From the NCBI GenBank assembly GCA_963555755.3, contig OY820905.2, positions 3,328,001 through 3,392,000 of the forward strand: a stretch of DNA of 64,000 bases, given 5' to 3'. This document shows, piece by piece, positions 1,995 to 57,641 of this stretch. Position 1 is the first letter of the stretch. Every line of letters begins with the position of its first letter. The translations under genes and the position numbers were made by a program. This DNA is from Nitrospirales bacterium. GTDB taxonomy: Bacteria; Nitrospirota; Nitrospiria; Nitrospirales; UBA8639. The notes beneath the pieces are model-generated. The model ran no database searches and was not told the DNA's origin. It was given only the letters and a program-made list of their open reading frames with translations.

Positions 1995-2135
1995 GGGCAC
2001 CTCTAAAAACCGTCCTTTTCCGTGATGGCGGCGTCAGCCGCGTGCTCACATCCTCATGTATTCGCCCATACACTCCGGTTTTCCGCGCGCGGCTTCCTTG
2101 CCCTCACAAAAAATGCCTGGTTTTTAGAGGTGCCC
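1995..2135. mobile_element. MITE-like palindromic element, family A (141 bp)
   Basis: 16-bp TIR GGGCACCTCTAAAAAC/GTTTTTAGAGGTGCCC, flanked by TTAT on both sides; near-identical inverted copy at 26651-26792. Confidence 0.85.
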
Positions 2136-2603
2136 TTATATCGTTGTTAAGTAAGAGGCCACCAGCAGGACTGCCAAAGTCATAAGGATGATGGCTTTTT
2201 GCAGATTATCGGCTCGGGACGAAGGTGCTGGGGAAGAGGGATTTGGGGTTTTCTTTAACGACGGCGCATGGGGATCGATAATGAAGTCGTGGATGAGGAT
2301 AAGTCCAAAGGCAATGACAAACAGAAATATTTTGAGCATCAAGACCACACCCCAGGTAGTTTCTATTCGAGCGGATCCGCTTTCGTTCAGCATTTGATAC
2401 GAGCCCGTCAAGATCAACGTGATTAAACAAACCCACGCGATGGTTCGGAAGCGACGGCCTGCTAATCGCACCACTTCTTTGGACTTTTGGTCCGATTGGT
2501 CCTGTTGTGCTGCAGGATTGAGGACAAACTGGGAGAAGACCAAACCACCCATAAGGGTCACTGCGGCGATCAGATGAATCCAGGTGATGAGATAATCAGG
2601 CAT
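2136..2603 (-). CDS. CopD/DUF4149-like membrane protein
   Basis: WIHLIAAVTLMGG, four TM helices, 'WGVVLMLKIFL' and 'IHDF' motifs. Confidence 0.7.
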   Translation of the reverse strand: MPDYLITWIHLIAAVTLMGGLVFSQFVLNPAAQQDQSDQKSKEVVRLAGRRFRTIAWVCLITLILTGSYQMLNESGSARIETTWGVVLMLKIFLFVIAFGLILIHDFIIDPHAPSLKKTPNPSSPAPSSRADNLQKAIILMTLAVLLVASYLTTI

Positions 2604-2915
2604 GTTGGTACGACTCGATGTTGGGCTCTTTTTCTGTAAAAGCCGACGTTATCGTATAGATTTGGGGTTAGTCAAAACACTAGTCCAGATTATACGTAAC
2701 AAGGCTGTTCTCTTTCGTGCGAAATCAACTGAGAGAAATAATGCAGGACGTTAATACGAAAATCGAAGGGAGGGCCAACTGGGTTCTGACCTTACCCAGA
2801 TGGGGCAGGTTCCGATTGAGGAGCGAAAAATAACCCGGCGTCGGATGGGAATTGATTCGGTGATTCTCTGGCAGCCAGAATGCTCAGGAAAGGAAAAGGT
2901 TTCCCTTCCTCGAGC

Positions 2916-3341
2916 TTATCGCTTCATTTCAATAGTGCCGTTAAAGATCACCCCTTCTTCAATGGACAATTGTGGGCTGTTCAGTGATCCGTCCATGTTG
3001 GCGTTTGACAGCAACAGTATTTTTTCCTTGGCGACGATATCGCCGGTGATCTTGCCTTTGCTGATCACGGAACCTGCACTAATCTTCGCGGTAATGACGG
3101 CGTCTTTCCCAACGAGGAGCGTGCCTTCGGTGTGTAACTCGCCTTCTAACCGGCCATCAATTCGTACGCTACCCTTGTAGATGATGGTCCCTTTGAATTC
3201 GACGCCCTGGCCAATGAAGGCGACAATTTTTTCTGTACCAAAGCCAGAGTCATCCGAGCCGTGATCACCTGGAAAGTCAGAAGAGAGGTCGGTTGGGGGA
3301 GTGTACAGGGTTTGGGGTTCTTCCAATTCAACAGCAGACAT
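2916..3341 (-). CDS. Bactofilin / polymer-forming cytoskeletal protein (CcmA family)
   Basis: FIGQGVEFKGTI...VRIDGRLEGEL...IEEGVIFNG beta-helix pattern; AGGAGG RBS upstream. Confidence 0.9.
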   Translation of the reverse strand: MSAVELEEPQTLYTPPTDLSSDFPGDHGSDDSGFGTEKIVAFIGQGVEFKGTIIYKGSVRIDGRLEGELHTEGTLLVGKDAVITAKISAGSVISKGKITGDIVAKEKILLLSNANMDGSLNSPQLSIEEGVIFNGTIEMKR

Positions 3342-3536
3342 GTGAGATCCTCCTTATGGCTGGGAACGGCCTTTGGCTTGAAGTGTTGGAATATTTTCGA
3401 ATGTCTTTAAGATTATCGGTTGTTTTTGAATTTTCTTTATCCTTTTTTTCCGTTATCGTTGATTTCAACGCCTTCCCCTTATCCCCTTAGTCCCAAAAAT
3501 CGCCGAATTAAGGGTTCGCGTAAGAATAACATCCCA

Positions 3537-4543
3537 TATGCCTTCCCATTTGACTAAGGTTAGTCCCTAGACTAGTCTGCTGGACTATGGACACAGGGTA
3601 TGCTGCTGATATCTTGGATTTTTCTGTTAGGTTCCACACCGAAGAAGCGTGCTTCGAGTACTTGCGGGCGATTCGGTGGCCAGACGGGTTTATGTGTCCA
3701 GCTTGCGGTCATCGCGGTGGTTGGTGGCTCAAAAAATATTTCCGGTTTGAGTGTTCGTCGTGTCATAGACAGACATCACCGCTAAGCGGCACAGTGATGC
3801 ATAGATCGCACTTGCCGCTACGGCTTTGGTTTTGGGCTGCCTATTTCGTCTCCACGCACACACCTGGCATCAGTGCTGTGCAATTGCAGCGTCAACTCAG
3901 TATCAAGAAGGTGGATAGCGCCTGGTATTTGCTCCACAGATTGCGACGAGGAATGGTACGACAGAACCGTGAACGGCTCGCAGGAACAGTTGAAGCCGAT
4001 GAAACCCATATCGGTGGACCGGTAAAAGGCAAAACGGGCCGTGGCGTCGCGAAAGCGAAAACCAAGACGTTAATAGCCGGAGCCGTAGAAATTGTCACGT
4101 ACACACAAGGGGATCACTTTCGAGAGAAAGCAGGGCGTTTACGATTAGCGATTCTTCAAGACGCTGGAGAGAACGAGATCAAAGCATTCCTCAATAGCCA
4201 TGTCGCTGAGGGCAGTAAGATCAAGTCCGATGGTTGGAAGGGATACTCGGCAAAAGCCTTGGCAGGATACGAACACCTGAGACGGACCCAGGGTGACCCA
4301 GCAAGTGCTGGGAAGCACGCTCCACACATCCATAGAGCGTTCGGCAATCTGCAGACCTGGCGGGAACGGGATTCACCATGGAGTGGATTGAATACCTGCG
4401 AACCGTCTTGATGAGTTTATCTTTCGCTATAACCGCCGTGAGACTCCAATGTTTTCCAGAGTTTGTTGAAAATCCTGACCAGCAGCTCAAAACCCTTGGG
4501 ATTCAATAAACTGAAGCAACCTTAGTTAAATGCGTAAGGCATA
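3537..4543 (+). mobile_element. IS1595-family element, copy 1 (3' end degraded)
   Basis: TIR TATGCCTTCCCATTTGACTAAGG with a corrupted right TIR; flanked by ACATCCCA at 3529-3536 and 4544-4551. Confidence 0.9.
3587..4411 (+). pseudogene. IS1595 transposase, frameshifted near 4360
   Basis: Matches copy 2 up to ...GNLQTW, then frameshifts and loses the YLDEF motif. Confidence 0.85.
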
Positions 4544-4551
4544 ACATCCCA

Positions 4552-5563
4552 TATGCCTTCCCATTTGACTAAGGTTAGTCCCTAGACTAGTCTGCTGGAC
4601 TATGGACACAGGGTATGCTGCTGATATCTTGGATTTTTCTGTTAGGTTCCACACCGAAGAAGCGTGCTTCGAGTACTTGCGGGCGATTCGGTGGCCAGAC
4701 GGGTTTATGTGTCCAGCTTGCGGTCATCGCGGTGGTTGGTGGCTCAAAAAATATTTCCGGTTTGAGTGTTCGTCGTGTCATAGACAGACATCACCGCTAA
4801 GCGGCACAGTGATGCATAGATCGCACTTGCCGCTACGGCTTTGGTTTTGGGCTGCCTATTTCGTCTCCACGCACACACCTGGCATCAGTGCTGTGCAATT
4901 GCAGCGTCAACTCAGTATCAAGAAGGTGGATAGCGCCTGGTATTTGCTCCACAGATTGCGACGAGGAATGGTACGACAGAACCGTGAACGGCTCGCAGGA
5001 ACAGTTGAAGCCGATGAAACCCATATCGGTGGACCGGTAAAAGGCAAAACGGGCCGTGGCGTCGCGAAAGCGAAAACCAAGACGTTAATAGCCGGAGCCG
5101 TAGAAATTGTCACGTACACACAAGGGGATCACTTTCGAGAGAAAGCAGGGCGTTTACGATTAGCGATTCTTCAAGACGCTGGAGAGAACGAGATCAAAGC
5201 ATTCCTCAATAGCCATGTCGCTGAGGGCAGTAAGATCAAGTCCGATGGTTGGAAGGGATACTCGGCAAAAGCCTTGGCAGGATACGAACACCTGAGACGG
5301 ACCCAGGGTGACCCAGCAAGTGCTGGGAAGCACGCTCCACACATCCATAGAGCGTTCGGCAATCTGCAGACCTGGCTGAACGGGATTCACCATGGAGTGG
5401 ATTCAAAATACCTGCAACACTATCTTGATGAGTTTGTCTTTCGCTATAACCGCCGTGAGACTCCAATGAGTACCTTCCAGAGTTTGTTGAAAATCCTGAC
5501 CAGCAGCTCAAAACCCTTGGGATTCAATAAACTGAAGCAACCTTAGTTAAATGGGAAGGCATA
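4552..5563 (+). mobile_element. IS1595-family element, copy 2 (intact, 1012 bp)
   Basis: 23-bp TIRs with one mismatch; 8-bp direct repeat ACATCCCA at 4544-4551 and 5564-5571. Confidence 0.92.
4602..5546 (+). CDS. IS1595-family DDE transposase
   Basis: Zn ribbon CPAC...CSSC, VEADET, SDGWKGY and HGVDSKYLQHYLDEFVFRYNRR; stop codon lies within the right TIR. Confidence 0.95.
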   Translation: MDTGYAADILDFSVRFHTEEACFEYLRAIRWPDGFMCPACGHRGGWWLKKYFRFECSSCHRQTSPLSGTVMHRSHLPLRLWFWAAYFVSTHTPGISAVQLQRQLSIKKVDSAWYLLHRLRRGMVRQNRERLAGTVEADETHIGGPVKGKTGRGVAKAKTKTLIAGAVEIVTYTQGDHFREKAGRLRLAILQDAGENEIKAFLNSHVAEGSKIKSDGWKGYSAKALAGYEHLRRTQGDPASAGKHAPHIHRAFGNLQTWLNGIHHGVDSKYLQHYLDEFVFRYNRRETPMSTFQSLLKILTSSSKPLGFNKLKQP

Positions 5564-5721
5564 ACATCCCATTTTGGGGTGCTGAGACACCCGTCTGGCA
5601 AGGCGCGAGGACTTCGCATACCCTTGGTATGAAAAGGACGAGCAACGCCGCCAGACGGGATGGATCGACGCCCAAAGATTGGATGCGAGATGTCCAAGTT
5701 ATTTTCTCTCAGGTCCTAAGG

Positions 5722-9130: not shown

Positions 9131-9367
9131 GGGAATGTTGAAAAAATCCGCCAGCGGCGTTCTCGCCCTTTTGCCGTGCTCACGTACTATGAGTACGCTC
9201 CGCGCGTCAAAATGGCTGCGGCCTTTCCTTCGACTCTGCTCAGGACAGGACTGGATAGACCCTTCGGAAAGACTCAGGGCATGCTTTTTTGAACATTCCC
9301 TCCCTCTGACGATGTGTGGCTTATCTGAAGCGTGTATTGGCTATTGATGTAATTATTCAACAGCGCC
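9131..9367. mobile_element. MITE-like element, family B, with two inserted REP-like hairpins
   Basis: GGGAATGTTGAAAA...TTTTGAACATTCCC plus an extension ending TTCAACAGCGCC; homologous to 23845, 34994, 36645. Confidence 0.85.
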
Positions 9368-9506
9368 AGATCTTAAGAGTGGTCAGATTCATTCTCAGGT
9401 AACAGACATTGTTGAACAGGTATTGCATACGAAGAGGGGAGCTCCTAGAATGTTGGCCGGGGTTGAAAATAAGAGCTTCATATTCATTGCTTCAGAGAGG
9501 GATGCT

Positions 9507-13441: not shown

Positions 13442-13494
13442 AATGAAAAACTATACTGAGGTTAACTAATTTCCATTCCCTCTGCTGATGGCGT

Positions 13495-13599
13495 AAATCC
13501 GAATCTCGAATATCGAAATCCGAAACAAATTTCAATGACCAAATAGAGAATTTAGGATTTCGGATTTGTTTCGGATTTCGATATTCGGATTTCGAGTTT
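13495..13599. repeat. Inverted heptamer cassette (AAATCCG-type), no enclosed gene
   Basis: AAATCCG AATCTCG AATATCG AAATCCG AAACAAAT ... ATTTGTTT CGGATTT CGATATT CGGATTT CGAGTTT. Confidence 0.85.
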
Positions 13600-13678
13600 A
13601 TGAAACGTATTTGGAATCACTATAGCAAAAGGAGAAAGGTGTGTTGGGAAAAAGAAGAACGGAAAGCTGACAGAGCAG

Positions 13679-15350: not shown

Positions 15351-15383
15351 CTGGATTCCCGCTAAAAACCGCGGGAATGACGG
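15351..15383. repeat. Short REP-like palindrome CTGGATTCCCG-N-CGGGAATGAC
   Basis: Second copy at 36943-36976. Confidence 0.7.
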
Positions 15384-15500
15384 TTGGATTTGTTGGAGGC
15401 CCGGTGCCACAACGAATCTCAATTTTCGTAGTTACATTTCGTATTGGCCCTTCTACCCGATTCATCTCTATCAAAAGGATTGCAGGTTTGGCAATGGTAA

Positions 15501-15590
15501 AAGCGTGAAACGAATTACGCTTGCACGCCGGAGCGCTGCAGCGCGCAGGCACGAAAATACGTCTCACGCTTCACGCCTTACGCTTCACGT
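15501..15590. repeat. Inverted heptamer cassette (CGTGAAG-type) after TolC stop, with small GC hairpin inside
   Basis: Minus strand reads CGTGAAG CGTAAGG CGTGAAG CGTGAGA just after TAG; short complementary arm at 15501-15512. Confidence 0.75.
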
Positions 15591-22177: not shown

Positions 22178-22951
22178 GGGTCCGTAAAGAAATAAGTGGT
22201 ACATGAAGACACGTAGATTTAGGTCAGATTTGGTCGATCTGAATGAGAGGAACCGGAGGAATAGTTGTGCTATTTTGAACCTAGAAACGGCAGTTGGGCG
22301 CAAAAAAGACGTGTAAGATATTGGTGTGCATGGTGAAATACAAAAAGTCGTGGTCACCTTAGGGTTCGCGCAAGAATACCTTCCCCGGTTTGGGCGTCGA
22401 TCCATCCCGTCTGACGGCGTTGCTCGTTCTTTCCATACGAGGAGTATGCGCAGTCCTCGCGCCTTGCCAGACAGGTGTCTCAGCACCCAAACCGGGGAAG
22501 GTATTCTTGCGCGAACCCTCCGTGGTGATGAGACATTTTTGTATTTTATCAGGTGCGCTCAGGGTCCGTCATGAAATAACCAGTACAATTGGGAGGCCCA
22601 GATTTGTGATCGGGGCAAGGCGCGACGAGAGAGCCTAGCGGGGCTATGTGATCGAGGAGCAACGCCGCCCCGGGCCAAAGATGGGCCTCCCCGGAGGGCC
22701 GGACGCTTTTGGGCTCGGCCGGCGTTGCTCATCGCTTCCATACTCCCGGTATGCGCGCTCTTCGCTCCTTGGCTCGCTTCAAAATCCTCTCGGCCAATTG
22801 TACTGGTTATTTTCTCGCAGGTCCTAAGAGCTTGCGCGGACTTTTGTGATCCAACTGCGGTTTCTAGGTTGAAGGTTTCTCGATTGAAGATCGGCCAAAG
22901 ATGGCCTGAAGATGAGATGTGTAAATGTACGACTTATTTCTTTACGGACCC
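22178..22951. mobile_element. Nested MITE cluster (outer element with inserts at 22279-22869, 22362-22518, 22562-22824)
   Basis: Outer TIR GGGTCCGTAAAGAAATAAGT flanked by TTA/TTA; second TIR ACCTAGAAAC(G/C)GCAGTTGG flanked by TGA/TGA; two further TIR-bounded units inside. Confidence 0.8.
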
Positions 22952-23660: not shown

Positions 23661-24143
23661 GGGGCCGTCACGAAATAACCGGTACAATTGGGAGGCCAAG
23701 ATTTGTGATCGGGGCAAGGCGCGACGAGGGGAGCCTAGCGGGGCTCTGTGACCGAGGAGCAACGCCACCCTGGGCCAAAGATGGGTCTCCCCGAAGGGCC
23801 GGACGCTTGTGGGCTGCGCCGGCGTCGCTCATCGCTTCCATACTGGGAATGTTGAAAAAAGCCGCCAGCGGCGTTCTCGCCCTTTTGCCGTGCTCACGTA
23901 CTGAGAGTACGCTCCGCGCGTCAAAAGGGCTGCGGCCTTGCTGGATAGACCCTTCGGAAAGACTCAGGGCATGCTTTTTTGAACATTCCCTCCAGCTGAT
24001 GATGGCTGTCTCCTCTTGGGCATGTATTTGCCCTGGGAATGAAATTTTCAACAGTTCCATACTCCCGGTATGCGCGTTCTTCGCTCCTTGGCTCGCTCCA
24101 AAATCGTCTCGGTCAATTGTCCCGGTTATTTCGTGACGGACCC
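23661..24143. mobile_element. MITE (GGGNCCGTCACGAAATAACCGG TIR) carrying a family-B MITE at 23845-24058
   Basis: Uninterrupted sister at 22562-22824; insert flanked by duplicated ATACT. Confidence 0.85.
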
Positions 24144-24225: not shown

Positions 24226-24546
24226 GGGTTCGCGCAAGAATAACTTCCCCTGTTTGGGTGCTGAGACGCCTGTCTAGGAGCCTGTCCGACATTAGCGGAT
24301 CTACTGCGATTGCGCTGGATTTGGCCAGCTTTTCCGATCGTTTTCGTTAAATAGTCACCACTATTCGCCTCAAACGATCGAAAAAGCTGCCTCAAACCAG
24401 CACAATCTCGCGATGATCCCTAATGTCGGACAGGCTCCTAGCAAGGCGCGAGGACTGCGCATACTCTTGGTATGGAAAGGACGAGCAACGCCGCCAGGCG
24501 GGATGGATCGACGTCCAAACAGGGGAAGTTATTCTTGCGCGAACCC
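24226..24546. mobile_element. Family-C MITE carrying a 160-bp MITE at 24278-24437
   Basis: Outer TIR GGGTTCGCGCAAGAATAACTTCCCCTGTTTGG flanked by TAA/TAA; inner TIR GAGCCTGTCCGACATTAG flanked by CTAG/CTAG. Confidence 0.88.
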
Positions 24547-26650: not shown

Positions 26651-26792
26651 GGGCACCTCTAAAAACCAGGCATTTTTTGTGAGGGCTAAGGAAGCCGCGC
26701 GCGGAAAACCGGAGTGTATGGGCGAATACATGAGGATGTGAGCACGCGACTGACGCCGCCATCACGGAAAAGGACGGTTTTTAGAGGTGCCC
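26651..26792. mobile_element. Family-A MITE (inverted copy of 1995-2135)
   Basis: Same 16-bp TIR; flanked by TTGA/TTGA. Confidence 0.88.
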
Positions 26793-32498: not shown

Positions 32499-32677
32499 GG
32501 ACCTGAGAGAAAATACCTTGGACAATCTCGCGCCAAGATTTGGGTCGGATTTGGACGGAACGATTGAGAAAAACCCGAGGCATAGCACAGCTATGTTGAG
32601 GGTTCTTCGATTGAGGCCCGTTCAAAGATGGCCTGAAGATTGGATGCGAGATGTCCAAGGTATTTTCTCTCAGGTCC
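32499..32677. mobile_element. Family-D MITE, 1 bp from ruvA start codon
   Basis: TIR GGACCTGAGAGAAAATACCTTGGACA / TGTCCAAGGTATTTTCTCTCAGGTCC. Confidence 0.85.
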
Positions 32678-32706: not shown

Positions 32707-32965
32707 GGGTCTGTTGAAAAATTAAAAATTTTTCATTTTGGCGACGACTGTCTAACACGCTCATTGGTCAGAAGAAAAGGGGCTGTTCAAAAAGGCCCAT
32801 TGTCTGACCCGCCCAACCCAGGCGCGCCAAGACGCGCCCTTCCACAGGCAAGGCCGCAGGGGATTTGGCGCGCGGAGCGTACAGCAGTACGTGAGCACGA
32901 CAAAGGCCCGAGAACGCCGCTGGGACCCTTCGGAAAGACTCAGGGCATGCTTTTTCAACAGCCCC
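32707..32965. mobile_element. Family-B MITE variant
   Basis: GGGTCTGTTGAAAA...TTTTCAACAGCCCC flanked by TTTA/TTTA; internal end at 32779; core shared with 57476. Confidence 0.8.
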
Positions 32966-34993: not shown

Positions 34994-35207
34994 GAGACTG
35001 TTGAATATTTCACTCCAATGGCCAATACATGCTCAGGAGGAGCCGGACAGCATCAGCTGGGGGGAATGTTCAAAAAAGCATGCCCTGAGTCTTTCCGAAG
35101 GGTCCGTCCAGCAAGGCCGCAGCCATTTTGACGCGCGGAGCGTACTCTCAGTACGTGAGCACGGCAAAATGGCGAGAACGCCGCTGGCGACTTTTTTCAA
35201 CATTCCC
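34994..35207. mobile_element. Family-B MITE
   Basis: Reverse-complement homolog of 23845-24058; flanks TGAAA/TGAAT. Confidence 0.85.
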
Positions 35208-36644: not shown

Positions 36645-36872
36645 GGGTCTGTTGAATATCTCCTTCCCATAGCCAATAAAAGCTCCGGAGGAGCCAAGCG
36701 TCGTCAATTGGAGGGAAGGTTCAAAAAAGCATGCCCTGAGTCTTTCCGAAGGGTCTCTCCAGCCCTGTCCTGAGCGAAAGGCCGCAGCCCTTTTGACGCG
36801 CGGAGCGTACTCTCAGTACGTGAGCACGGCAAAAGGGCGAGAACGCCGCTGGCGGCTTTTTTCAACATTCCC
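36645..36872. mobile_element. Family-B MITE
   Basis: GGGTCTGTTGAA...TTCAACATTCCC flanked by ATATA/ATATA. Confidence 0.85.
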
Positions 36873-40401: not shown

Positions 40402-40406
40402 AAAGA

Positions 40407-43213: not shown

Positions 43214-43229
43214 GGAGCAGGTTCTTTCT

Positions 43230-43805: not shown

Positions 43806-43814
43806 CACTTCACG

Positions 43815-44345
43815 ATGATCTATTTATTGTTCGGGTACTTCGCGACGGTGAGCATCGTGGCCGGTGTCTTCACGATCGCGTTGAAAAATCCTGTTCATTG
43901 CGGCATGAGTCTGTTGACGTTGCTTCTGCACGTCGCGGGGTTGTTCGTCCTGCTCAATGCGGAATTCTTGTTTGCCGTACAGATCATTGTCTATGCGGGA
44001 GCCATTTTGATTCTGTATTTGTTTGTCTTGATGCTATTGAACCTCAAAACTGAAGAGCAATTTCTTCATAAAAAATATCCATTCGCCCTGTTTGCCGGGA
44101 TCGCCATTCTTGGGGAACTTCTTATTCTGATTTTCCAAACGCCCTATAGTGGAGTGAAGGGGAAGGCCACGACGGAGGTCATTTTAACCACCGGACCGAG
44201 TCATGCGATTGGCCTGGTCATGTTTAGCGATTATTTGCTGTTGTTCGAGATTGTCGGAGTGTTTCTCTTGGGAGCCGTGATTGGTGCGATCGTGTTAGCC
44301 AAGACACCATCGTCGCCGGTGCCGAAGGCGGATGGATCTAATTAA
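43815..44345 (+). CDS. nuoJ: NADH-quinone oxidoreductase subunit J
   Basis: NPVH, QIIVYAGAI..LYLFVLM, FEIVG. Confidence 0.95.
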   Translation: MIYLLFGYFATVSIVAGVFTIALKNPVHCGMSLLTLLLHVAGLFVLLNAEFLFAVQIIVYAGAILILYLFVLMLLNLKTEEQFLHKKYPFALFAGIAILGELLILIFQTPYSGVKGKATTEVILTTGPSHAIGLVMFSDYLLLFEIVGVFLLGAVIGAIVLAKTPSSPVPKADGSN

Positions 44346-44369
44346 CGTCGCGGGGTTTACCATTACACC

Positions 44370-44672
44370 ATGATTCCTCTTTCTGCATATGTGGGGTTGA
44401 GTGCAATTCTGTTTATGACAGGACTCATTGGAGTGCTGATTCGTCGGAACTTCATCATTATCTTGATGTCCGTGGAGATTATGCTCAATGCCGCCAATAT
44501 CAATCTCGTGGCGTTTTCCCATTACTTGGATTCGATGGCTGGGCAAGTAGCAGCCCTATTTGTCATTGCCATTGCCGCCGGAGAAGCGGCCATAGGCTTG
44601 GCCATCATCATCGTGGTGTTCCGTGGAAAAATTGCGACCAATGTGGATCAGATCAATTTGTTGAAATGGTAA
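44370..44672 (+). CDS. nuoK: NADH-quinone oxidoreductase subunit K
   Basis: RRN..LMSVEIMLNA, AAGEAAIGLA. Confidence 0.96.
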   Translation: MIPLSAYVGLSAILFMTGLIGVLIRRNFIIILMSVEIMLNAANINLVAFSHYLDSMAGQVAALFVIAIAAGEAAIGLAIIIVVFRGKIATNVDQINLLKW

Positions 44673-44673
44673 C

Positions 44674-46665: not shown

Positions 46666-46671
46666 GGGGAA

Positions 46672-46767
46672 GTGAAGCGTGATCCGTAAAGCGTTATGCG
46701 GGAGTAAAGATTGCGGCGAATTTTAAACGTGACCCCATTCTTTTCATATCACGCATTACTCATTACG
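46672..46767. repeat. Inverted heptamer cassette at nuoL-nuoM junction
   Basis: GTGAAG CGTGATC CGTAAAG CGTTATG CG ... ATCACGC ATTACTC ATTACG. Confidence 0.75.
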
Positions 46768-46848
46768 ATCTTTTAAGCCAATGGCAAATAGAGCAATACT
46801 GAATAAATCAAATGGACGTTTTAAATAGAAATACAGCAGGCAGCATTC

Positions 46849-48420
46849 ATGCTTGAAGAACTGCAATTTGGATTTCCCCTACTATCGGTCCTGATTTTCT
46901 TGCCGTTCGTCGGAGCGCTCTTGCTGTGGACGCAGAAGGATCCGGATCTTCTCAAGAAGTCGGCCCTCGGGATCGCCGTACTTGAGCTCATCCTAGCTGC
47001 GTTGCTTTTATGGCGATTCATTCCCGATTCTGCCGCCATGCAATTCAGTGAACGGCATGAATGGATTCCTCCACTGGGAATTTCCTATCACCTCGCCGTC
47101 GATGGCATTAGTATTTTGTTCGTCGGTCTGACGGCCTTTCTCACCGTTCTGATTGTGCTCTATTCCTGGGATGCGGTGTCCCAGAATCTCAAAACCTATT
47201 TCATGAGCATCCTGGTCTTGGAAACGATGATCATGGGCATTTTCGTGTCCATCGATTTAATCCTGTTCTTCGTCTTCTGGGAACTGATGCTGATTCCCAG
47301 CTACTTCCTCATCAAAATGTGGGGGGTGGGAGAAGAGAGGGAGTATGCCGCGTTAAAGTATGTCCTCTACACGTTGTTGGGCAGCGTCTTTATGTTGGTG
47401 GGGTTCGCGCTGCTGAGCTTGAATTATCATGATATCACGAATACGTATAGTTTCGACTTCCTCGAATTGCTGACGGTTCCCGTGCCGGTCGGACAACAGT
47501 TTCTAATTTTTTGGTTCATCTTCATGGGGCTGGCCTTTAAGGCTCCGATATTTCCTTTTCACACCTGGTTGCCGGATGCACTTGTTCAAGGGCCCATCGG
47601 CATGTCGGTAGTATTGGCGGGCGTCAAACTGGGAACGTATGGATTCCTACGCTTCAGTTTTCCGTTGCTCCCTGAAGCCTCCACGAATGAAACAGTGGTT
47701 GTGATACTCATGGTCCTCGGCCTTTCTGCAATTGTGTATGGCGCGATCATTGCGATTGTGCAGGCCGACTTTCGCCGTCTCTTGGTCTATAGCAGCATTA
47801 GCCATTTAGGCTTCATCGTGATCGGTCTGTTTGCGCTGAACTTTCAAGGCATTCAAGGCAGCTTGTTGCAGATGATCAACTTGGGCTTTACGACCGCTGG
47901 CCTCTTTTTCATAGCAGGCTTTCTGTATGACCGAACGGGAAATACCCTTGTGGATCAAGCCGGAGGCATTGCGGCCAAGATGCCCTTGTTCGCGACGTTC
48001 TTTCTCATCATTGGCATGGCGTCAATTGGGTTGCCCGGAACGAATGGGTTTATTGGAGAGTTTCTAATTCTGCTTGGCGCCTTTCAAGCGCATTGGGTCT
48101 ATGGGACTGTGGCGGTATCCGGTGTGATTTTCGCGGCAGCGTATTTCCTGTGGTATTACGAACGAGCGATCTTTGGTCCGTTGGGAGAAAAAGTGCCGCA
48201 AGTGCTACAAGATTTAACTCAACGCGAGACCATTATTGCGGTGTCGCTGTGCGTCATGATTTTTTGGATCGGCTTGTATCCGTCACCATTTTTGCGAATG
48301 ATCAATGGCTCGGTGCAAGCGGTCGTCGATAGATTAGAGCGAGGTTCCGTGGCAAGTATTGAGTTCGACAAACGATTCGCGATGGATTCTCCGAATACAC
48401 GCCTTCTGGTGAAAGAATAG
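46849..48420 (+). CDS. nuoM: NADH-quinone oxidoreductase subunit M (copy 1)
   Basis: FWELMLIP, KAPIFPFHTWLPDA, KLGTYG, YSSISH, GLPGTNGFIGE. Confidence 0.95.
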   Translation: MLEELQFGFPLLSVLIFLPFVGALLLWTQKDPDLLKKSALGIAVLELILAALLLWRFIPDSAAMQFSERHEWIPPLGISYHLAVDGISILFVGLTAFLTVLIVLYSWDAVSQNLKTYFMSILVLETMIMGIFVSIDLILFFVFWELMLIPSYFLIKMWGVGEEREYAALKYVLYTLLGSVFMLVGFALLSLNYHDITNTYSFDFLELLTVPVPVGQQFLIFWFIFMGLAFKAPIFPFHTWLPDALVQGPIGMSVVLAGVKLGTYGFLRFSFPLLPEASTNETVVVILMVLGLSAIVYGAIIAIVQADFRRLLVYSSISHLGFIVIGLFALNFQGIQGSLLQMINLGFTTAGLFFIAGFLYDRTGNTLVDQAGGIAAKMPLFATFFLIIGMASIGLPGTNGFIGEFLILLGAFQAHWVYGTVAVSGVIFAAAYFLWYYERAIFGPLGEKVPQVLQDLTQRETIIAVSLCVMIFWIGLYPSPFLRMINGSVQAVVDRLERGSVASIEFDKRFAMDSPNTRLLVKE

Positions 48421-48425
48421 TTTTC

Positions 48426-50021
48426 ATGGGTTCTTTAGCCTTACTCACAGTATTGTTTTCGCCATTTTTTGGCGCCATTGCGTTGATCTTTGTCCCGAAT
48501 CGGGAAGCCCTCATGGTGCGCATGGTGGCTGCGGCGTCTGCTGGCCTTTCCCTCTTGGCCTCGTTGTATGTGTTTATGGCCTACGACCCGAATGTCGGCG
48601 GGTTTCAGTTTAAGACCCATTGGCCGTGGTCTGAGGAACTAGGCATTGCCTTTTATATTGGCGTGGATGGCATTGGGGCGCCCTTGGTTTTTGCCTCGGC
48701 GCTCTTACTCTTCGCGGGTATTTTTGTTTCGTGGCATATCAAAGATCGAACCAAAGAATTTTATATCTTTTTGTTGATCCTCGCAGCGGCGACCATTGGG
48801 GTCTTCATGTCGCTGGACCTGTTCTTCCTCTACTTCTTCTATGAAATGTCCGTGCTGCCTATGTACTTGCTGTTGGGGGTGTGGGGCAGTCACACCAAGG
48901 GCTACTTGGGCATGACGGATGCAGAAGGCTTGAAGCTGAGGGATTCCACCAAATTCTTTTTAAACTTTGGGTCGAACAGCAAAGAATACGCGGCCATGAA
49001 GCTGACGCTGTTCTTGTCGGCAGGTGCCGTGTTCGCACTCATGGGCATCCTCTTGATTTACCATTTCTCGCCCGTGCATACGTTCAACATTTTGGTGCTG
49101 CGAGAGCAGGCAAAATTTGATGGCCTGTTGGGCAACATTATTTGGCTACTCATCTTTTTTGGATTTGCCTCGATCGCGCCGATTTGGCCGTTGCATTCCT
49201 GGTCGCCCGTCGGCCATGCCGCGGCGCCTGCTGCGACAAGCATGTTGCATGCCGGCGTGCTGATGAAGCTGGGCCACTTCTCCATTATCCGTGTAGCCTT
49301 TGAAATAATGCCGGAGATCACACGCGAACTCATGCCCATTGCGGCGGTCCTGTGTGTCTTCAGTATTCTCTATGGCGGTTTTGTGTCCTATTATGCCAAG
49401 GACACCAAATACGTCATTGGGTATTCCAGTTCGAGCCACATGGGCTACATTTTTTTAGGCATGGCAGCGTTGGACTACATCAGTTTGACCGGGGCGGTCA
49501 TTTATATGTTTGCCCATGCCCTGGCCACGGGAATGCTCTTCGCCATGGCGGGATGGATCTATGACCAAACGCACTCGCGTGACATCCCGTCATTAGGAGG
49601 GTTGGCACAGAAGATGCCCTTCCTTGCCGGTGCGTTTCTTGTGGCCTGTATGGCCTCAGTCGGCATGCCCGGCACCATAAATTTTATCGCCGAAGTGATG
49701 ATTATCGTGGGCAGTTGGGAGAAATATCCCTTCCAAGTCATCGTCGCGGTGTTGGGAATTGTGCTGACCCTCGCCTATTTGTTCAAAATGATGCGGGGCC
49801 TCTTCTACGGAAAGCTGTCACCGGAATTTGAGCATGTGAGTGATACCTCGCAATGGGTGGATCGAATGCCACTGCTGCTGATGATCACCGCCAGTATTTT
49901 CTTTGGCATTTTCCCGATGCACTTTTATCACGTGGTCCGGTCAACGGTAGAACCCATGCTAGATCGAATCAACCAAGTGGCGCCGGCGATTGCGCAGAAT
50001 ACAGCGGGGATTTTTCCGTAA
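48426..50021 (+). CDS. nuoM: NADH-quinone oxidoreductase subunit M (copy 2, divergent)
   Basis: FFYEMSVLP, WPLHSWSP, MKLG, YSSSSHMG, GMPGTINFIAE. Confidence 0.9.
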   Translation: MGSLALLTVLFSPFFGAIALIFVPNREALMVRMVAAASAGLSLLASLYVFMAYDPNVGGFQFKTHWPWSEELGIAFYIGVDGIGAPLVFASALLLFAGIFVSWHIKDRTKEFYIFLLILAAATIGVFMSLDLFFLYFFYEMSVLPMYLLLGVWGSHTKGYLGMTDAEGLKLRDSTKFFLNFGSNSKEYAAMKLTLFLSAGAVFALMGILLIYHFSPVHTFNILVLREQAKFDGLLGNIIWLLIFFGFASIAPIWPLHSWSPVGHAAAPAATSMLHAGVLMKLGHFSIIRVAFEIMPEITRELMPIAAVLCVFSILYGGFVSYYAKDTKYVIGYSSSSHMGYIFLGMAALDYISLTGAVIYMFAHALATGMLFAMAGWIYDQTHSRDIPSLGGLAQKMPFLAGAFLVACMASVGMPGTINFIAEVMIIVGSWEKYPFQVIVAVLGIVLTLAYLFKMMRGLFYGKLSPEFEHVSDTSQWVDRMPLLLMITASIFFGIFPMHFYHVVRSTVEPMLDRINQVAPAIAQNTAGIFP

Positions 50022-50099
50022 ACCAAAAACGCAACGGGAGAAAAATGATAGACCTTTTAGCTTGTATTTCCTGCACCTTGCGACGTGGTGACCATTCAG

Positions 50100-50205
50100 T
50101 CCCCCCTTTGGAAAAGGGGGTTAGGGGGATTTATAGTTTTTTAACTTTCAACTAGTACATCCCAAACCTCCCTCGCCCCTGAGGGGAGAGGGTTGGGGTG
50201 AGGGG
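50100..50205. repeat. Two short REP-like hairpins (CCCCCCTTT-N-AAAGGGGG and CCCTCGCCC-N-GGGAGAGGG types)
   Basis: Related copies at 39075-39110 and, inverted, at 52253-52288. Confidence 0.7.
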
Positions 50206-50265
50206 TTAGCCCATGAGGAAGTTAAAATACCCTACTCACAAAAACTACGATTAACTGAATTTCTT

Positions 50266-51762
50266 ATGACCTTTGATCTCACACTATCCGTCTCCGACCT
50301 CCTCCTTCTCGCACCAGAGATTTTTCTCACACTCTGGCTGTGTGTGGTGTTGGCCGTCGATTTTTCAATCAAAAATATAGATCACGAAAATCTCGCGTAC
50401 CTTTCGGTTGGCGGAATTATTGCCACGCTCATCAATCTGATTTGGTTCGATTATATCGGGGTCCACGGTGCATTGTTTAAGGACACGTTTGTCCTGGACG
50501 GCATGGCGATCTTCTTTAAAATCCTCATTCTGCTGTCCACCGCGCTCGTCTTGTTGATGTCTATCGATTACGTCAAGAATTTCCGCTTCTTTCGTGGCGA
50601 ATATTATTTCCTCGTCATGATGTCGGCCCTGGGCATGATGTTTATGGCATCAGCCCAGGATCTGTTGTCGGTGTTCGTGACGTTAGAGTTTTCCACATTC
50701 GGGTTTTATGTGTTGGTCGCGTACCTCAGAGAAGATGAACGGTCCAGCGAAGCGGGGCTGAAATTTTTTATTCTGGGAGTGTTTGCCGCGGGCCTATTGG
50801 CATACGGGATCAGTCTGGTCTACGGAGAAACCGGAACCTTTACATTCTCTGAAATGACATCGTCACCTGGAAGCTACGGTTTGGCAATTGGCTTTATCAT
50901 GATCTTTGCCGCCCTCGGTTTCAAAATCGGTGCGGTGCCATTTCACTCTTGGATTCCTGATACGTACCAAGGCGCTCCGACACCCGTTACCGCGTTTCTC
51001 TCCATCGCTCCGAAGGCAGCGGCATTAGCTATTCTCATTCGCATGTTCTATGTCGCGCTCATCACGTTTAAGCCGATGTGGGTGTTGCTGTTTGTCGTTG
51101 CCTCGATTGTCTCGATGACCTATGGCAACATTGTGGCCATAGCGCAGAAAAATATTAAACGGCTGCTGGCGTATTCCGGCATCGCCCAAATTGGCACTGT
51201 GATGATTGGGTTGGCCGCGGGAACCAAGCGCGGAAGTGATGCGATTCTGTTCTTTCTGTTAACCTACCTGTTCGCCAATCTCGGCGCGTTTGCTGTGGTT
51301 GTCGGCGTAAGTAACCTAATCAAGAGTGATGAAATCGAGGACTACAATGGCTTGAATCGCCGATCACCCTTCCTCGCAGCGGCCATGCTGCTCTTTCTTC
51401 TGTCGTTGGCAGGCGTGCCACCACTCGCTGGATTTATCGGGAAACTCTACATCTTTCTCGCCGCCATTGAACAAGAACTCTATACGCTGTTGATTGTCGG
51501 TCTGATCAACATCGTGATCTCACTGTATTACTACCTTATTGTGGTCAAAAAGATGTACATCAACGAACCCACCGATCCCACCCCTCTCACCGTCTCAGCC
51601 CCCCTCAAAACCGTCATCTTCGTCAGCATCGCTGGTACGCTGATCCTCGGCATCTACCCCAAACCCTTCATCGACTGGGCCGTCTCAGCCACCCTCATGT
51701 TTTCCAATCTTGTAGCTCCAACAGCAGCAGTGCCTGCCGTGAGTCATTTGGTGGGCGGCTGA
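50266..51762 (+). CDS. nuoN: NADH-quinone oxidoreductase subunit N
   Basis: SEAGLKFFILG, FKIGAVPFHSWIPDTYQGAPTP, KRLLAYSGI, SLAGVPP. Confidence 0.96.
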   Translation: MTFDLTLSVSDLLLLAPEIFLTLWLCVVLAVDFSIKNIDHENLAYLSVGGIIATLINLIWFDYIGVHGALFKDTFVLDGMAIFFKILILLSTALVLLMSIDYVKNFRFFRGEYYFLVMMSALGMMFMASAQDLLSVFVTLEFSTFGFYVLVAYLREDERSSEAGLKFFILGVFAAGLLAYGISLVYGETGTFTFSEMTSSPGSYGLAIGFIMIFAALGFKIGAVPFHSWIPDTYQGAPTPVTAFLSIAPKAAALAILIRMFYVALITFKPMWVLLFVVASIVSMTYGNIVAIAQKNIKRLLAYSGIAQIGTVMIGLAAGTKRGSDAILFFLLTYLFANLGAFAVVVGVSNLIKSDEIEDYNGLNRRSPFLAAAMLLFLLSLAGVPPLAGFIGKLYIFLAAIEQELYTLLIVGLINIVISLYYYLIVVKKMYINEPTDPTPLTVSAPLKTVIFVSIAGTLILGIYPKPFIDWAVSATLMFSNLVAPTAAVPAVSHLVGG

Positions 51763-54159: not shown

Positions 54160-54552
54160 ATGAAAATTGAACGATTTGAAGATATTGAAGCATGGCAACT
54201 GGCGCGTGAGTTGACCCGAAAAGTGTATGGACTGGCGAAGAAGCCAGTATTTGCCAAAGATTATGGGTTAAAGAAACAGATACAAAATGCTGCTGGATCG
54301 TCGATGCATAATATCGCTGAAGGGTTCGATTCAGAGACGAATCCTGAATTTATCCGGTTCTTACGGTACGCCAAGCGGTCTTGCACGGAAGTTCAGAGTG
54401 AGTTGTATTTAGCTTTGGACGAAGAGTACATCTCGTCCGATGAATTCAAAGAAACCTTCGAGCTTGCTGGACGAACCCGTGCTGCTGTTAGGGGATTCAT
54501 TAACTATCTCAAGAAATTTGAGGAACACAACAAGGCGATCCATGAACGGTGA
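54160..54552 (+). CDS. Four helix bundle protein (23S rRNA IVP / S23-like, Avd-like fold)
   Basis: FEDIEAWQLAREL, YGLKKQIQNAAGSSMHNIAEGF, FIRFLRYAKRSCTEVQSEL. Confidence 0.93.
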   Translation: MKIERFEDIEAWQLARELTRKVYGLAKKPVFAKDYGLKKQIQNAAGSSMHNIAEGFDSETNPEFIRFLRYAKRSCTEVQSELYLALDEEYISSDEFKETFELAGRTRAAVRGFINYLKKFEEHNKAIHER

Positions 54553-54827
54553 CCCCTGAACCATGAACGGTGACCCCTGAACCATGAACGGTGACCCCTG
54601 AACCATGAACGGTGAACCCTGAACCCTGAACCTTGAACCCTGAACCTTGAACCCTGAACCTTGAACGGTGACCCCTGAACCTTGAACGGTGACCCCTGAA
54701 CCTTGAACGGTGACCCCTGAACCTTGAACGGTGACCCCTGAACCTTGAACGGTGACCCCTGAACCATGAACGGTGACCCCTGAACCTTGAACGGTGAACC
54801 CTGAACCTTGAACGGTGAACCCTGAAC
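54541..54827 (+). repeat. Tandem array of 41 heptamers (NNTGAMC) with 21-bp higher-order period
   Basis: Units CATGAAC/CTTGAAC, GGTGACC/GGTGAAC, CCTGAAC; array begins in the last codons of the gene. Confidence 0.95.
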
Positions 54828-54884
54828 CTGACAGCCTGAGTCGTTAACAATCATCCAACCCTTGTTTCCCTAAAGGAGAGTCGT

Positions 54885-55304
54885 ATGCCAGGAACGAATA
54901 TTCGAGAGACTAAGTTTGGACAAATGACAGTCGGGCAATTGATGGAAAAATGCGTGCAGTCTGCCAACAGGGACTCGAAGGCGGAATTGCTCGCTTCGTA
55001 TATGATGGAGGGGTTTGGCTCGGTGCCGATCATTGACAATTCGGAAAATTTAGTTGGCATTGTGTCAGAGTTTGACTTATTGAAAGCCCTGAGAAAAGGC
55101 AACAAACTAGGCGAGGTCTTGGCTGGTGATATCATGACTCCGAATCCTATTTCAGCCTTTCAGGGTATGGATGTGCCAGCGCTCATTGATATTTTGCAAA
55201 ACAATCATCTCATTCGGGTGCCGGTGATCGATGGTAATGGAAAATTGATCGGGATTGTCGCTCGACGGGATATCCTCCGCGGTTACCTCCAATCTGGCAG
55301 CTAA
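54885..55304 (+). CDS. CBS domain protein
   Basis: LVGIVSEFDLL, RVPVID..GKLIGIVARRDIL; AAGGAG RBS. Confidence 0.9.
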   Translation: MPGTNIRETKFGQMTVGQLMEKCVQSANRDSKAELLASYMMEGFGSVPIIDNSENLVGIVSEFDLLKALRKGNKLGEVLAGDIMTPNPISAFQGMDVPALIDILQNNHLIRVPVIDGNGKLIGIVARRDILRGYLQSGS

Positions 55305-55317: not shown

Positions 55318-55438
55318 GGGCCTGCTGCAAAAGCCCGCCAGCGGCGTTCTCAGGCCTTTGTCGTGCTCACGTACTTCATGTACGCTCCGCGCGCCAAAGT
55401 CCCTGCGGCCTTGCTGGACGAACTTTTTCAACAAGCCC
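55318..55438. mobile_element. Minimal family-B MITE (121 bp)
   Basis: Core GCCAGCGGCGTTCTC...GCTCACGTAC..GTACGCTCCGCGCG...CTGCGGCCTTGCTGG with imperfect TIRs. Confidence 0.8.
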
Positions 55439-55453: not shown

Positions 55454-56275
55454 GTGCGACAGTTTGCCGATCGAATCGTTAAGACTGCTGGTTTTGAATA
55501 TTTCATCATTGCCCTCATTATCGGCAATGGCGCATTGCTTGGAATGGAAACGTCTCCGGCATTGGTTCAGGCCTATGGGGATTGGTTTCACCTGGGCAAT
55601 CAACTCGTTCTTGGCGTATTTATCATTGAAGCATTATTAAAGATGACGGCCGTCGCGCCTCGAGTCGGGCGCTATTTCCAGGATAGCTGGAACATCTTTG
55701 ACTTTTCAGTCATTGTCTTTTCTCTCATTCCGGCAACTGGGGATTTTGCCATGATTGCTCGGCTTGCCCGCTTGTTGCGGGTTGTCCGTCTGATTTCCAC
55801 GATCCCCGAGCTTCGGCTTATTGTCTCGACCTTGGTTCGCTCAATCCCCAGCATGGGGCATGTGATGCTCTTAATGGGGGTGATTTTTTATATCTATGCC
55901 ATCACCGGGTATCAGCTGTTTCATGAACACGATCCCACTCACTGGCGATCGCTGGGCATTGCCCTGCTCACACTCTTCCGCGTGGTCACGCTCGAAGATT
56001 GGACGGACATCATGTACACCGCCATGGAATTTCATGACCTCGCCTGGATCTATTTTGTGAGTTTCGTGGTGGTAGGAACTTTCGTGGTGGTCAATTTATT
56101 CATCGCGGTCGTGATCAATAACCTAGACGAAGCCAAGGCAGAGCGTCTTCGAGAGTTGGAGCCACCAGTCTCGCGAGAAGAAATCTTGAGTGATTTGCGG
56201 TCAACTCAAAAAGCCTTACAACGGTTAGAGGAACGATTGGAACGCCACGGTCAGCATATACCTGAAGGGAACTAA
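55454..56275 (+). CDS. Bacterial voltage-gated cation channel (BacNav-like)
   Basis: WNIFDF (S3), RLARLLRVVR (S4), filter TLEDWTD, NLFIAVVIN (S6), coiled-coil tail; GTG after AGAGG. Confidence 0.92.
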   Translation: MRQFADRIVKTAGFEYFIIALIIGNGALLGMETSPALVQAYGDWFHLGNQLVLGVFIIEALLKMTAVAPRVGRYFQDSWNIFDFSVIVFSLIPATGDFAMIARLARLLRVVRLISTIPELRLIVSTLVRSIPSMGHVMLLMGVIFYIYAITGYQLFHEHDPTHWRSLGIALLTLFRVVTLEDWTDIMYTAMEFHDLAWIYFVSFVVVGTFVVVNLFIAVVINNLDEAKAERLRELEPPVSREEILSDLRSTQKALQRLEERLERHGQHIPEGN

Positions 56276-56316
56276 CTATAGATCAAGTCCAGGCAATCAA
56301 TGTGACAAGAATATGG

Positions 56317-57405
56317 TTAGTACTGGAGCTGTTTGCCAATCGTCGAAAGTCCCTTCTGAAAATCCTCTTGCTTCAACATAGAAGCCCATGATAGGCGAAT
56401 CGCCGGCATGTCATTTGCTGGATAGTCTACAAATGGTTTCACAATAATTCCAAAGTCTAAGGCAAGCTGCTTGGCAAATTGGACATGATCTAAGTCAGAC
56501 TTTCCTTTGAATGTGAGGATGCCAGGGGCATGTGGTCCCTCCCATTCCAGGACATGACAACCTTGAATCCGGCCTAACTGTTCTTTTGCCTCCTTCTGAA
56601 AATTTAGGAGTTGTTCTGTCTCGATTCCCTTTTGATGTCTGTGTTCACAGGCCTGAGCCAACCCCGCAATGAGTCCGATGTTGTGTGTTCCGATTTCAAA
56701 TTGGGAGGCTAGCGGCCACCCTGGATTTTCCGATTGAATCTGTTGGTAATTCGGGTGCTGGAAAAAGCCATCTCGCACCACCATCGCCCCCGTGCCGAGG
56801 GGGCCCTGACACCACTTGTGTCCAGTAAGCAGGTAGACATCGAAATCCAACATGCTCAGGTCTACAGCGATATGTCCCACAGCTTGCGCACCATCGATGA
56901 TGACCACACACTGGTGTTCTTTGGCTAAAACTGAAATGTCGTGTATGGGAAAAACCCGGCCATCCACGTGAGACACATGGCTCATTACGAGGGCTTTGGG
57001 GTGGTGTTGGTTGATTTGATGTTTGAATTCTTTGATGAATTCGCCAGGGCTGACCGGCTTAATCGCGTGAATGTGAATGCCTCGGGGCTCAAGGGCGAAC
57101 AGTTGACTCGTGATGGAAGGATTTTCGTGCGTGGTGGTCAGAATGGTATCGCCCGATTTCCAATTCAATGAGGAGAGTATGAGAAAATGAGCGGTAGATG
57201 CATTCGAGACGAATGCAATGGTCGAGGGATCCGAAACATGTAATAACGAGCCAACCTTTTGCCGGCAATCACGAATTTTGTTGAGATACCACTCAATGCC
57301 GGCATCGGAATACAGATAGTGCTTGAACTCGGTCAGCGTACGTTCAACTTCCTGTTCAGCCTCTGGGAGAGTCGGGCACAATGCCGCGTAATTGAGATAG
57401 ATCAT
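56317..57405 (-). CDS. Class-V PLP enzyme, probable ergothioneine C-S lyase (EgtE-like)
   Basis: YLNYAA, IDGAQAVG, TGHKW..GP.GTG; directly downstream of egtD. Confidence 0.7.
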   Translation of the reverse strand: MIYLNYAALCPTLPEAEQEVERTLTEFKHYLYSDAGIEWYLNKIRDCRQKVGSLLHVSDPSTIAFVSNASTAHFLILSSLNWKSGDTILTTTHENPSITSQLFALEPRGIHIHAIKPVSPGEFIKEFKHQINQHHPKALVMSHVSHVDGRVFPIHDISVLAKEHQCVVIIDGAQAVGHIAVDLSMLDFDVYLLTGHKWCQGPLGTGAMVVRDGFFQHPNYQQIQSENPGWPLASQFEIGTHNIGLIAGLAQACEHRHQKGIETEQLLNFQKEAKEQLGRIQGCHVLEWEGPHAPGILTFKGKSDLDHVQFAKQLALDFGIIVKPFVDYPANDMPAIRLSWASMLKQEDFQKGLSTIGKQLQY

Positions 57406-57475
57406 GCGTGATCACGCAAAGAAAGAAAATTCATGAGCCAAGTAGCTCAAGGAAGCGAGTACAAGAAATAGCCAA

Positions 57476-57641
57476 GGGGCTGTTCAAAAAGGCCGTTGTC
57501 TGACCCGCCCAACCCAGGCGCGCCAAGACGCGCCCTTCCACAGGCAAGGCCGCAGGTACTTTGGCGCGCGGAGCGTACTCACAGTACGTGAGCACGACAA
57601 AGGGCCGAGAACGCCGCTGGGCGGCCTTTTTGAACAGCCCC
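57476..57641. mobile_element. Family-B MITE abutting egtD stop codon
   Basis: TIR GGGGCTGTTCAAAAAGGCCG / CGGCCTTTTTGAACAGCCCC. Confidence 0.88.

Follow-up and report, generated by a model that had tools for sequence, protein, structure and literature searches.

Miniature elements with ends resembling different insertion sequence families share an ERIC/RPE-like core in a Nitrospirales genome

Introduction

The closest described relatives of the mini-elements treated here are ERIC and the Rickettsia palindromic elements (RPEs). In the excerpted text of PMC2229807, ERIC is a 127-bp enterobacterial transposable element of the miniature inverted-repeat type (MITE) with a conserved central inverted repeat, and RPEs are located in tmRNA and M1 RNA; these excerpts and those of PMC10969869 report that ERIC alters transcript stability via RNase E in an orientation-dependent manner. 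Our analysis concerns the short repeats in a 64,000-nucleotide stretch of a Nitrospirales genome (the window; G000:C1:3328001-3392000), which is taken from a near-complete assembly of 4.62 Mb whose NuoD protein groups with entries of Nitrospirota/Nitrospirales. These repeats are bounded by terminal inverted repeats (TIRs) that resemble those of several insertion sequence (IS) families, and most of them enclose a common core.

In the literature considered here, ERIC, RPE, CIR and Bru-RS are treated as separate families (PMC10969869, PMC2229807, PMC3184786, PMC2759123, PMC2267715, PMC3733652, PMC12983561).

Results

A common core

Repeat searches and direct reading delimit 18 TIR-bounded mini-elements of eight end types at positions 1995-57641 of the window (Table 1), where the initial annotation had counted about 15 elements with at least six types of TIR. 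The end types are A GGGTTCGCG, B GGGCACCTCT, C GGACCTGAGAG, D GGGTCCGT, E GAGCCTGTCC, F GGGAATGTT, G GGGGCTGTT and I CCTAGAAAC. The units are 120-263 bp long, well within the 500 bp usual for MITEs, and like these they possess TIRs and contain no transposase gene.

Fourteen of the 18 elements carry the core, which is 52-72 nt long. Its parts are a basal internal loop flanked by covarying helices, with AAGGC on one side and AACGC plus C or A on the other; a middle stem of free sequence; a GAG/TGA loop, which can be read as G-U together with tandem G-A; and an apical stem of 5-6 bp. The pattern CAAGG - apical stem - ACGCC matches the genome 477 times and an equal-length Markov control not once; these matches fall in families F/G, A, B, D, J and K, and cores under different end types align with each other at z 2.6-11. 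Departures from the consensus affect 1.3-1.4% of positions in the unpaired AAGG and ACGC segments and 15.7% in the apical loop. A kink-turn is formed by a 3-nt bulge adjoining tandem G-A pairs; with a bulge of 0 or 1 nt in our alignment, the core does not fit this motif.

The occurrence of the core was examined with two covariance models. For the training of model R1, three window copies were combined with 45 loci out of 61 candidates, from which 12 viral and four metagenome loci had been removed. It predicts 15 cores in the window: seven in F/G, two in B, three in A and three in two D elements, although two of the D cores are weak (E 0.31 and 1.0). Cores of types A and D are thus recovered even though neither type was part of the training set. 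Because the training of R1 included ERIC-like sequences, a second model, R2, was built from 20 cores of this genome only; it ranks the window elements as R1 does. R1 finds no core in the C, L, E and I elements of the window. By eye only, C has the GAG/TGA loop and E the basal loop, so that at most a part of the core is common to these four. The initial annotation had proposed a single central hairpin design for most elements. This holds for the 14 core-bearing elements; for C, L, E and I it does not extend to the full core, and given the blank result of R1, the stems CATAGC..GCTATG and AATAG..CTATT belong only partly to the same design.

An unbiased scan of the genome for the basal loop yields spans of 44 nt (136 matches) and 64 nt (127 matches) only, and the control contains none of either length; the E element adds a 23-nt version, identified by eye. 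Taken as increments of about 20 nt, these lengths suggest a single turn of a hairpin helix, with few independent families behind the steps. Corresponding scans of viral contigs return at least 160 loci, 15 of which pass the helix filter, but lengths are evenly spread and mostly attributable to chance. The proposed phasing therefore rests on the genome classes of 44 and 64 nt, the E element and a few short cores elsewhere (3 of 85 dereplicated loci).

Ends of different IS families

The ends were compared with 30 IS types chosen from the long repeats of this IS-rich genome, in which PF01609 alone gives 70 matches, as well as with IS loci of relatives; most labels of the 30 types are our own attributions, made from their proteins. 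E ends agree with an IS1182 of the genome at 17/18 positions, the ends of J, a family outside the window with 8-bp duplications, with an IS66 at 17/18, and F and G ends with an IS5 at 14/18 and 13/18, respectively; these three IS families were confirmed afterwards. B ends match a 1256-bp IS5 of the relatives G136 and G139 at 16/16. The F/G ends are probably of the IS5 type too, with the qualification that the IS5 copy checked has a 6-bp repeat and the F/G duplication is 5 bp. The A, C, D and L ends share 12-14/18 positions and the TWA duplication with two ISAzo13 copies (G126, G166) and are probably of the ISAzo13 type; this link is weaker, as B also reaches 12/18 there and G000 contains no ISAzo13 transposase. 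For I, the best agreement is 12/18 with an IS1634, against a background of 10-11. An ISNCY element with ends of 13/18 was rejected as the partner of C in favour of ISAzo13, because its repeats have 6-7 bp and those of C 3 bp.

These results shift the earlier attribution of the TWA and CTAG targets to IS5-family transposases: CTAG goes with IS1182 (E) and TWA probably with ISAzo13 (A/C/D/L), so that IS5 ends and duplication hold for B and probably F/G only, and the genome further includes IS66 (J). On the other hand, the window indeed lacks a cognate transposase, as first noted. It does contain two IS1595 transposase genes, rejected because their ends agree with any mini-family at no more than 10/18 positions and because the copies sit inside one element. 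This IS1595 tandem (3536-5562) shows three 8-bp repeats; its first ORF (open reading frame) has 274 aa versus 314 aa, and the genome holds about 45 copies. A REP/RAYT system is likewise excluded, since tyrosine-transposase ends without duplication occur only in family H, which is coreless and lies outside the window. Between 18/18 family H ends, a tyrosine-transposase-like gene was observed at G000:C1:761600-762615 (NF047646, 73.5 bits, cut-off 80). The H minis have neither duplication nor core, and the locus may be of the TIRYT type named in the excerpted text of PMC3733652.

Beyond the TIR, the interiors match none of the 30 genome IS types, apart from one 18-nt hit at E 0.015, and none of seven IS loci of relatives. 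Hence the families are not simple internal deletions of their IS; such deletions were an outcome that the initial annotation had named as fatal to its proposal. The clearest pair is B, with IS5 ends, and J, with IS66 ends: their cores are 76% identical and their ends agree at 3/18 positions. The converse also occurs, in IS66 ends with and without the core and in A-like ends around a C-like interior.

Mobility and abundance

Duplications, nesting and one empty site show that the mini-elements are mobile. All seven target site duplications (TSDs) listed in the initial annotation (TTAT, TTGA, TTA, TAA, CTAG, ATACT and ATATA) were located in the window, and the site orthologous to the B element at 1995-2135 is empty in the relative G130, with a single TTAT. 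Genome-wide, TSDs were found for A (3 bp, 71/126), B (4 bp, 82/102), C (3 bp, 50/73), I (5 bp, 37/51), E (4 bp, 11/30) and D (3 bp, 8/35); in F/G, a 5-bp TSD flanks 53 of 225 cores versus 1-3 in shifted controls. Nesting reaches four elements, as L contains I and I contains A and D; furthermore, the A element at 24226 contains E, the D element at 23661 contains an F unit, and the hybrid element at 3512-5716 contains the two IS1595 copies.

Ends are also mixed. There are hybrids with an A-type or a D-type left end and a C-type right end, and F units with an added outer end and a 5-bp duplication. The 68-nt extra end of the F unit is free of a second core, and in only 2 of the 47 places where it lies is F missing. 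In total, 11 family consensuses match 1325 places of the genome, equal to 159,950 bases (3.5%), of which 791 cover at least 80% of the length. A blastn search of plasmids with an F element gave one partial match in 72,556 records.

Covariation across phyla

The core covaries across phyla; a lack of such support would, according to the initial annotation, have refuted its proposal. A GTDB scan with the apical pattern returned at least 121 stretches (80 among the matches listed), belonging to many phyla according to the record titles. In 79 of the 83 apical-pattern matches listed, the two stem positions left free by the pattern are paired, where 46 are expected. Among 65 dereplicated loci, three pairs hold in 61, 62 and 53, and a further pair in 48; 48 loci also retain an A-A mismatch. 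Since AAGGC, GAG, TAC, GTA and TGA were set by the search pattern, invariance at these positions is given by construction; the covariation counts take no account of relatedness. Alignment A1 has 82.5% paired cells, compared to 65.3% when shuffled and 23-39% when slid, with double changes in 17 of 23 pairs, and RNAalifold recovers the same helices independently.

The basal motifs are each present in 25 of the 65 loci versus 8-9 expected, so that many foreign copies lack them. With a longer pattern, the metagenome and viral matches show the basal motif 23-26 nt upstream in 62 of 85 loci and 14 nt upstream in three. Within the phylum, the strict core pattern is patchy and occurs in 7 of 121 genomes.

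Comparison with ERIC, RPE and other repeats

The apical pattern occurs 20 times in E. coli K-12 and 66 times in a Rickettsia genome (G001), and not at all in the controls. At E<=0.05, R2 predicts four places in K-12, all of which are apical-pattern matches, 76 places in the Rickettsia genome, and none in an Agrobacterium genome (G004). In K-12, the same GAG/TGA loop and a 5-bp C-N-TAC/GTA-N-G stem lie in a 127-bp TA-ended element, which we take to be ERIC on the grounds of length, termini and host rather than annotation; in a K-12 copy, AAGGC stands about 25 nt upstream, the same distance as here. A 152-bp TA-ended element of the Rickettsia genome shows the same apical module and spacing; both elements agree with the entries for ERIC and RPE tabulated in PMC2229807. 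Furthermore, most of the Rickettsia copies shown carry AAGG at that distance. The resemblance to RPEs proposed in the initial annotation is thus upheld by module, spacing and R2 matches. The closest named relative is the centre of ERIC as much as RPE.

The likeness to ERIC/IRU/RU-1 is confined to the conserved central inverted repeat, with its apical module and spacing. ERIC/IRU/RU-1 has 127 bp, TA termini and the ERIC TIR, whereas the elements here start with GG, GA, CC or GT, generate duplications of 3, 4, 5 or 8 bp, and include a short core class (A, D). Unlike published ERIC, they show no orientation effect in this genome. Similarly, the central palindrome of RPE is matched here but its TA-type ends are not. 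RPEs often lie in frame within genes, while the window copies are intergenic or overlap ORF ends only.

Type II MITEs, as characterized in the excerpts of PMC10969869, agree with our elements in size, TIR, duplication, absence of an ORF, intergenic location and an IS likeness restricted to the TIR, which is near exact for B, E and J and 13-14/18 for F/G. The same excerpts treat the interiors as family-specific decay products, whereas here one interior lies under the ends of several IS families. The CIR repeats of Caulobacter and Brucella and the bcr1 repeats of Bacillus consist of two hairpin arms and a linker, as do D elements, according to the excerpted descriptions on which this comparison is based (PMC2229807, PMC3184786); D elements differ in their TIRs and in having one core per strand. 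In the literature cited, we met with no description of a core shared by the ends of several IS families, although the primary papers on CIR, RPE and ERIC may note a likeness among the three. We regard the elements as new members of the type II MITEs, and their ERIC/RPE-type core as one that extends over several transposase families.

Strand polarity and host orientation

In all ten single-arm families, the unpaired bases are purine-rich on one strand. Read on the core strand, changes of consensus pairs lead to G-T more often than to A-C: counted by copy, 735 versus 302 in 639 near-complete copies, figures that, like all such counts, are inflated, as subfamily variants are linked and copies not independent. 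Counted as distinct events, the ratio is 225:159, and the sign agrees in 9 of 9 families. Singletons give 111:92 (p 0.21) and events in at least five copies 35:13 (p 0.002), the latter alongside 37 compensatory and nine pyrimidine-pyrimidine events. The excess is seen in the TIR (73:47) and middle (76:46) zones, and in sense (250:87) as well as antisense copies (253:117).

The orientation relative to host genes was tested on gene calls made in this analysis, with repeats masked beforehand. Between co-oriented genes (n=497), 246 copies are sense and 251 antisense, i.e. without bias; near the upstream gene the numbers are 135 and 144, and for older copies 76 and 91. Only G, one of 11 families, deviates on its own (15:31, p 0.026), which is not significant after correction. 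One strand is thus shown to be selected, more strongly among amplified variants and independently of host gene direction.

Rfam gives no match in the window and otherwise only sub-threshold ones to microRNA precursors; in 20 foreign loci, no match to the core passes the threshold. Promoter and terminator scans stay at chance level (15 versus 11.6 and 15 versus 18.7). The repeats are contained in RNA library X1, of which only contigs are available, so that strand, ends and level are not readable.

Inventory and other features of the window

Table 1. Mini-elements and associated insertions in the window (positions of the window; nested elements follow their hosts)
Feature	Position	Strand	Remarks
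B element	1995..2135	-	TSD TTAT; IS5-type ends, 16/16 to IS5 of relatives; core 2021-2109; empty site in G130
Hybrid element, A-type left and C-type right end	3512..5716	+	TSD TAA; short core 5590-5658; split by two IS1595
Tandem IS1595, not cognate	3536..5562	+	ORFs 3587-4411 and 4602-5546; 8-bp repeat before, between and after
F unit with additional outer end	9131..9368	-	core 9147-9235; imperfect duplication
L, outermost of four-element nest	22178..22951	+	D-variant ends, 14/18 to ISAzo13 of G126; TSD TTA
L interior	22178..22951	+	C-like, AATAG/CTATT stem; full core lacking
I element within L	22280..22868	+	TSD TTGAA; coreless; weakly IS1634-like ends, 12/18; joined empty form found
A element in tip of I	22362..22518	-	short core 22407-22475
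D element within I, D left and C-type right end	22562..22824	.	short cores on opposite strands: 22607-22675 (+), 22713-22780 (-)
D element	23661..24143	+	first core 23706-23775; second core broken by F unit
F unit, 214 bp	23845..24058	-	TSD ATACT; core 23861-23949
A element containing E element	24226..24546	+	TSD TAA; short core 24433-24501
E element	24278..24437	-	IS1182 ends, 17/18; TSD CTAG; by eye basal loop only, AATAG/CTATT cap; missed by models
B element	26651..26792	+	TSD TTGA; core 26677-26766
C element	32499..32677	+	only GAG/TGA loop, under CATAGC/GCTATG; missed by models
G element	32779..32965	+	core 32840-32927; another G-type end at 32707
F unit, 214 bp	34994..35207	+	core 35103-35191
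F unit, 228 bp	36645..36872	+	TSD ATATA; core 36768-36856
G element, 121 bp	55318..55438	-	core 55334-55422
G element with additional hairpin	57476..57641	+	core 57536-57624

Several elements are extended by additional hairpins. In F/G, hairpins of 22-25 nt are added in one or two copies, giving forms of 121, 146 and 170 bp; in the window they are found at 9225-9275, 23948-23979, 32924-32955 and 36725-36775. Two G elements have an identical 50-nt extra hairpin in the left arm (32799-32848, 57498-57545), and B elements of the relatives G141 and G134 possess a 41-nt extra branch directly after the GAG/TGA loop, with intact core motifs. An IS110 (NF033542) is inserted in F elements, e.g. at G000:C1:1893133-1894492, at the identical spot in the five copies viewed: a CT in the small extra hairpin of the 146-bp form, outside the core.

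The window also contains heptamer tandem repeats and heptamer-based hairpins (13494-13600, 15500-15590, 37887-37987, 40397-40494, 46661-46768, 54481-54900). One array adjoins a gene of the 23S_rRNA_IVP family, and several lie between nuo genes. The complex I operon (37494-51762) has two NuoM-like genes, and among the ORFs scanned none matches NuoE/F. Short palindromes with GACG ends at 15355-15385 and 36945-36975 resemble CGTC-type REPs.

Discussion

We tentatively interpret the repeats as non-autonomous mini-transposons with ends of mixed families, whose ERIC/RPE core folds on one strand and thereby yields better donor copies; we would give this a little less than an even chance. The core would likely fold into a rod that helps the copy to serve as donor, whatever the transposase by which its ends are read, and the fold would form while the core strand is exposed during replication or transcription of the donor. 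Selection would act on donor copies, because new copies land in random orientation and only the donor needs an exposed strand. The two purine-rich loops would be read by a host factor and not by the transposase, since transposases of different families are unlikely to have a motif in common. The working form could be single-stranded DNA or RNA, of which the DNA of the donor copy is the favoured candidate. New families would arise when a core-bearing element acquires new ends, either because elements insert into one another or because ends are used in hybrid form; examples are the A/C and D/C hybrids and the F units with an added outer end. A hinge model, with duplex TIRs and the centre alone folded, is weakened by the G-T excess reaching the TIR zone.

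We infer that the fold aids the spread of the element itself. The initial annotation spoke of a structured cargo between interchangeable ends; a folded core between the ends of different families is indeed what we find, but the idea of a cargo delivered to the host finds no support here, as neither an orientation bias towards genes nor an Rfam family was found. The data fit a part serving the element itself.

Several points weigh against this interpretation. DDE transposases act on duplex ends, and no way in which a folded strand would increase transposition is known to us. Elements that lack the full core have spread well too (93 full copies of C, 69 of I and 47 of E), which makes the core at most an advantage and not a requirement. 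In the core zone alone, distinct G-T and A-C events number 76:66, which is not significant; it is the flanking arms and TIRs that carry the excess, and the linkage of variants mentioned above further reduces the weight of the copy counts. The excess of copies on the lagging side is only small (405 of 751, i.e. 405:346), and effects of ERIC at the RNA level have been published (PMC2229807).

That last observation belongs to a rival explanation, which we consider possible but less probable: the core may act as RNA in host transcripts, rendering insertions tolerable or tuning the decay of mRNA via RNase cleavage, so that carrier lineages persist. On one strand, the G-U pairs, the tandem G-A and the loops rich in A resemble RNA motifs, D elements show a core on each strand, and the excerpted reports on ERIC and RNase E (PMC2229807, PMC10969869) and on RPEs within tmRNA and M1 RNA (PMC2229807) point in the same direction. 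However, a sense bias is absent between co-oriented genes, near the upstream gene and among older copies alike, the G-T excess is shared by antisense copies, and no Rfam family was found. It is improbable, in our estimation, that the core has no function at all and is an abundant ancestral hairpin passed on by end swapping, with arm-to-arm template switching preserving its pairing. Such switching would account for variants that often occur in both arms (position 25 of A: 41 in both arms, 9 in one; position 8 of C: 23 in both, 4 in one), and the nesting, the exchange of ends and the patchy distribution in the phylum agree with it. Yet it should erase mismatches, whereas the unpaired motifs are best kept and the A-A mismatch persists in diverse loci; moreover, the spacing of the loops is fixed although the stem between them is free, and strand polarity is not expected.

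The IHF site of Correia elements presumably brings the ends together, and the core could by analogy be a site in duplex DNA at which a bending protein of the host unites two close ends. Elements of 120-180 bp and basal-loop spans of only 44 and 64 nt, two duplex turns apart, would suit such a site. We nevertheless judge it still less likely: the apical stem includes every one of the four Watson-Crick types, loop length ranges from 3 to 7 nt, the two basal motifs form no inverted repeat in the duplex, and a preference of G-T over A-C is meaningless in duplex DNA. Least credible by far is the view that every family arose from its own IS by simple internal deletion and that the likeness is convergent. 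Element ends do match IS ends, but the match stops at the TIR, the alignment of cores across end types speaks against convergence, and for B, E, J and F/G this explanation is already contradicted.

Returning to the element-serving fold, a broader proposal may be put forward in an equally tentative manner, as something that could well turn out otherwise. A single lineage might comprise ERIC and RPE together with rhizobial repeats and unnamed MITE families in the hundreds; in it, an old, transposase-independent core would have moved between IS5, IS66, ISAzo13 and TA-ended wrappers and been kept because a widespread host factor reads its one-strand fold, with two loops at helical phase, and so promotes spread.

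The interiors of MITEs are usually taken as decayed IS sequence, and the purpose of the ERIC centre is a standing question. This genome is suited as a test bed, with about 790 near-full copies and natural pairs of the same core with different ends and of the same ends with different cores. Should unrelated transposases of various phyla prove to have one core in common between their ends, ERIC and RPE would belong to one class, defined by its interior.

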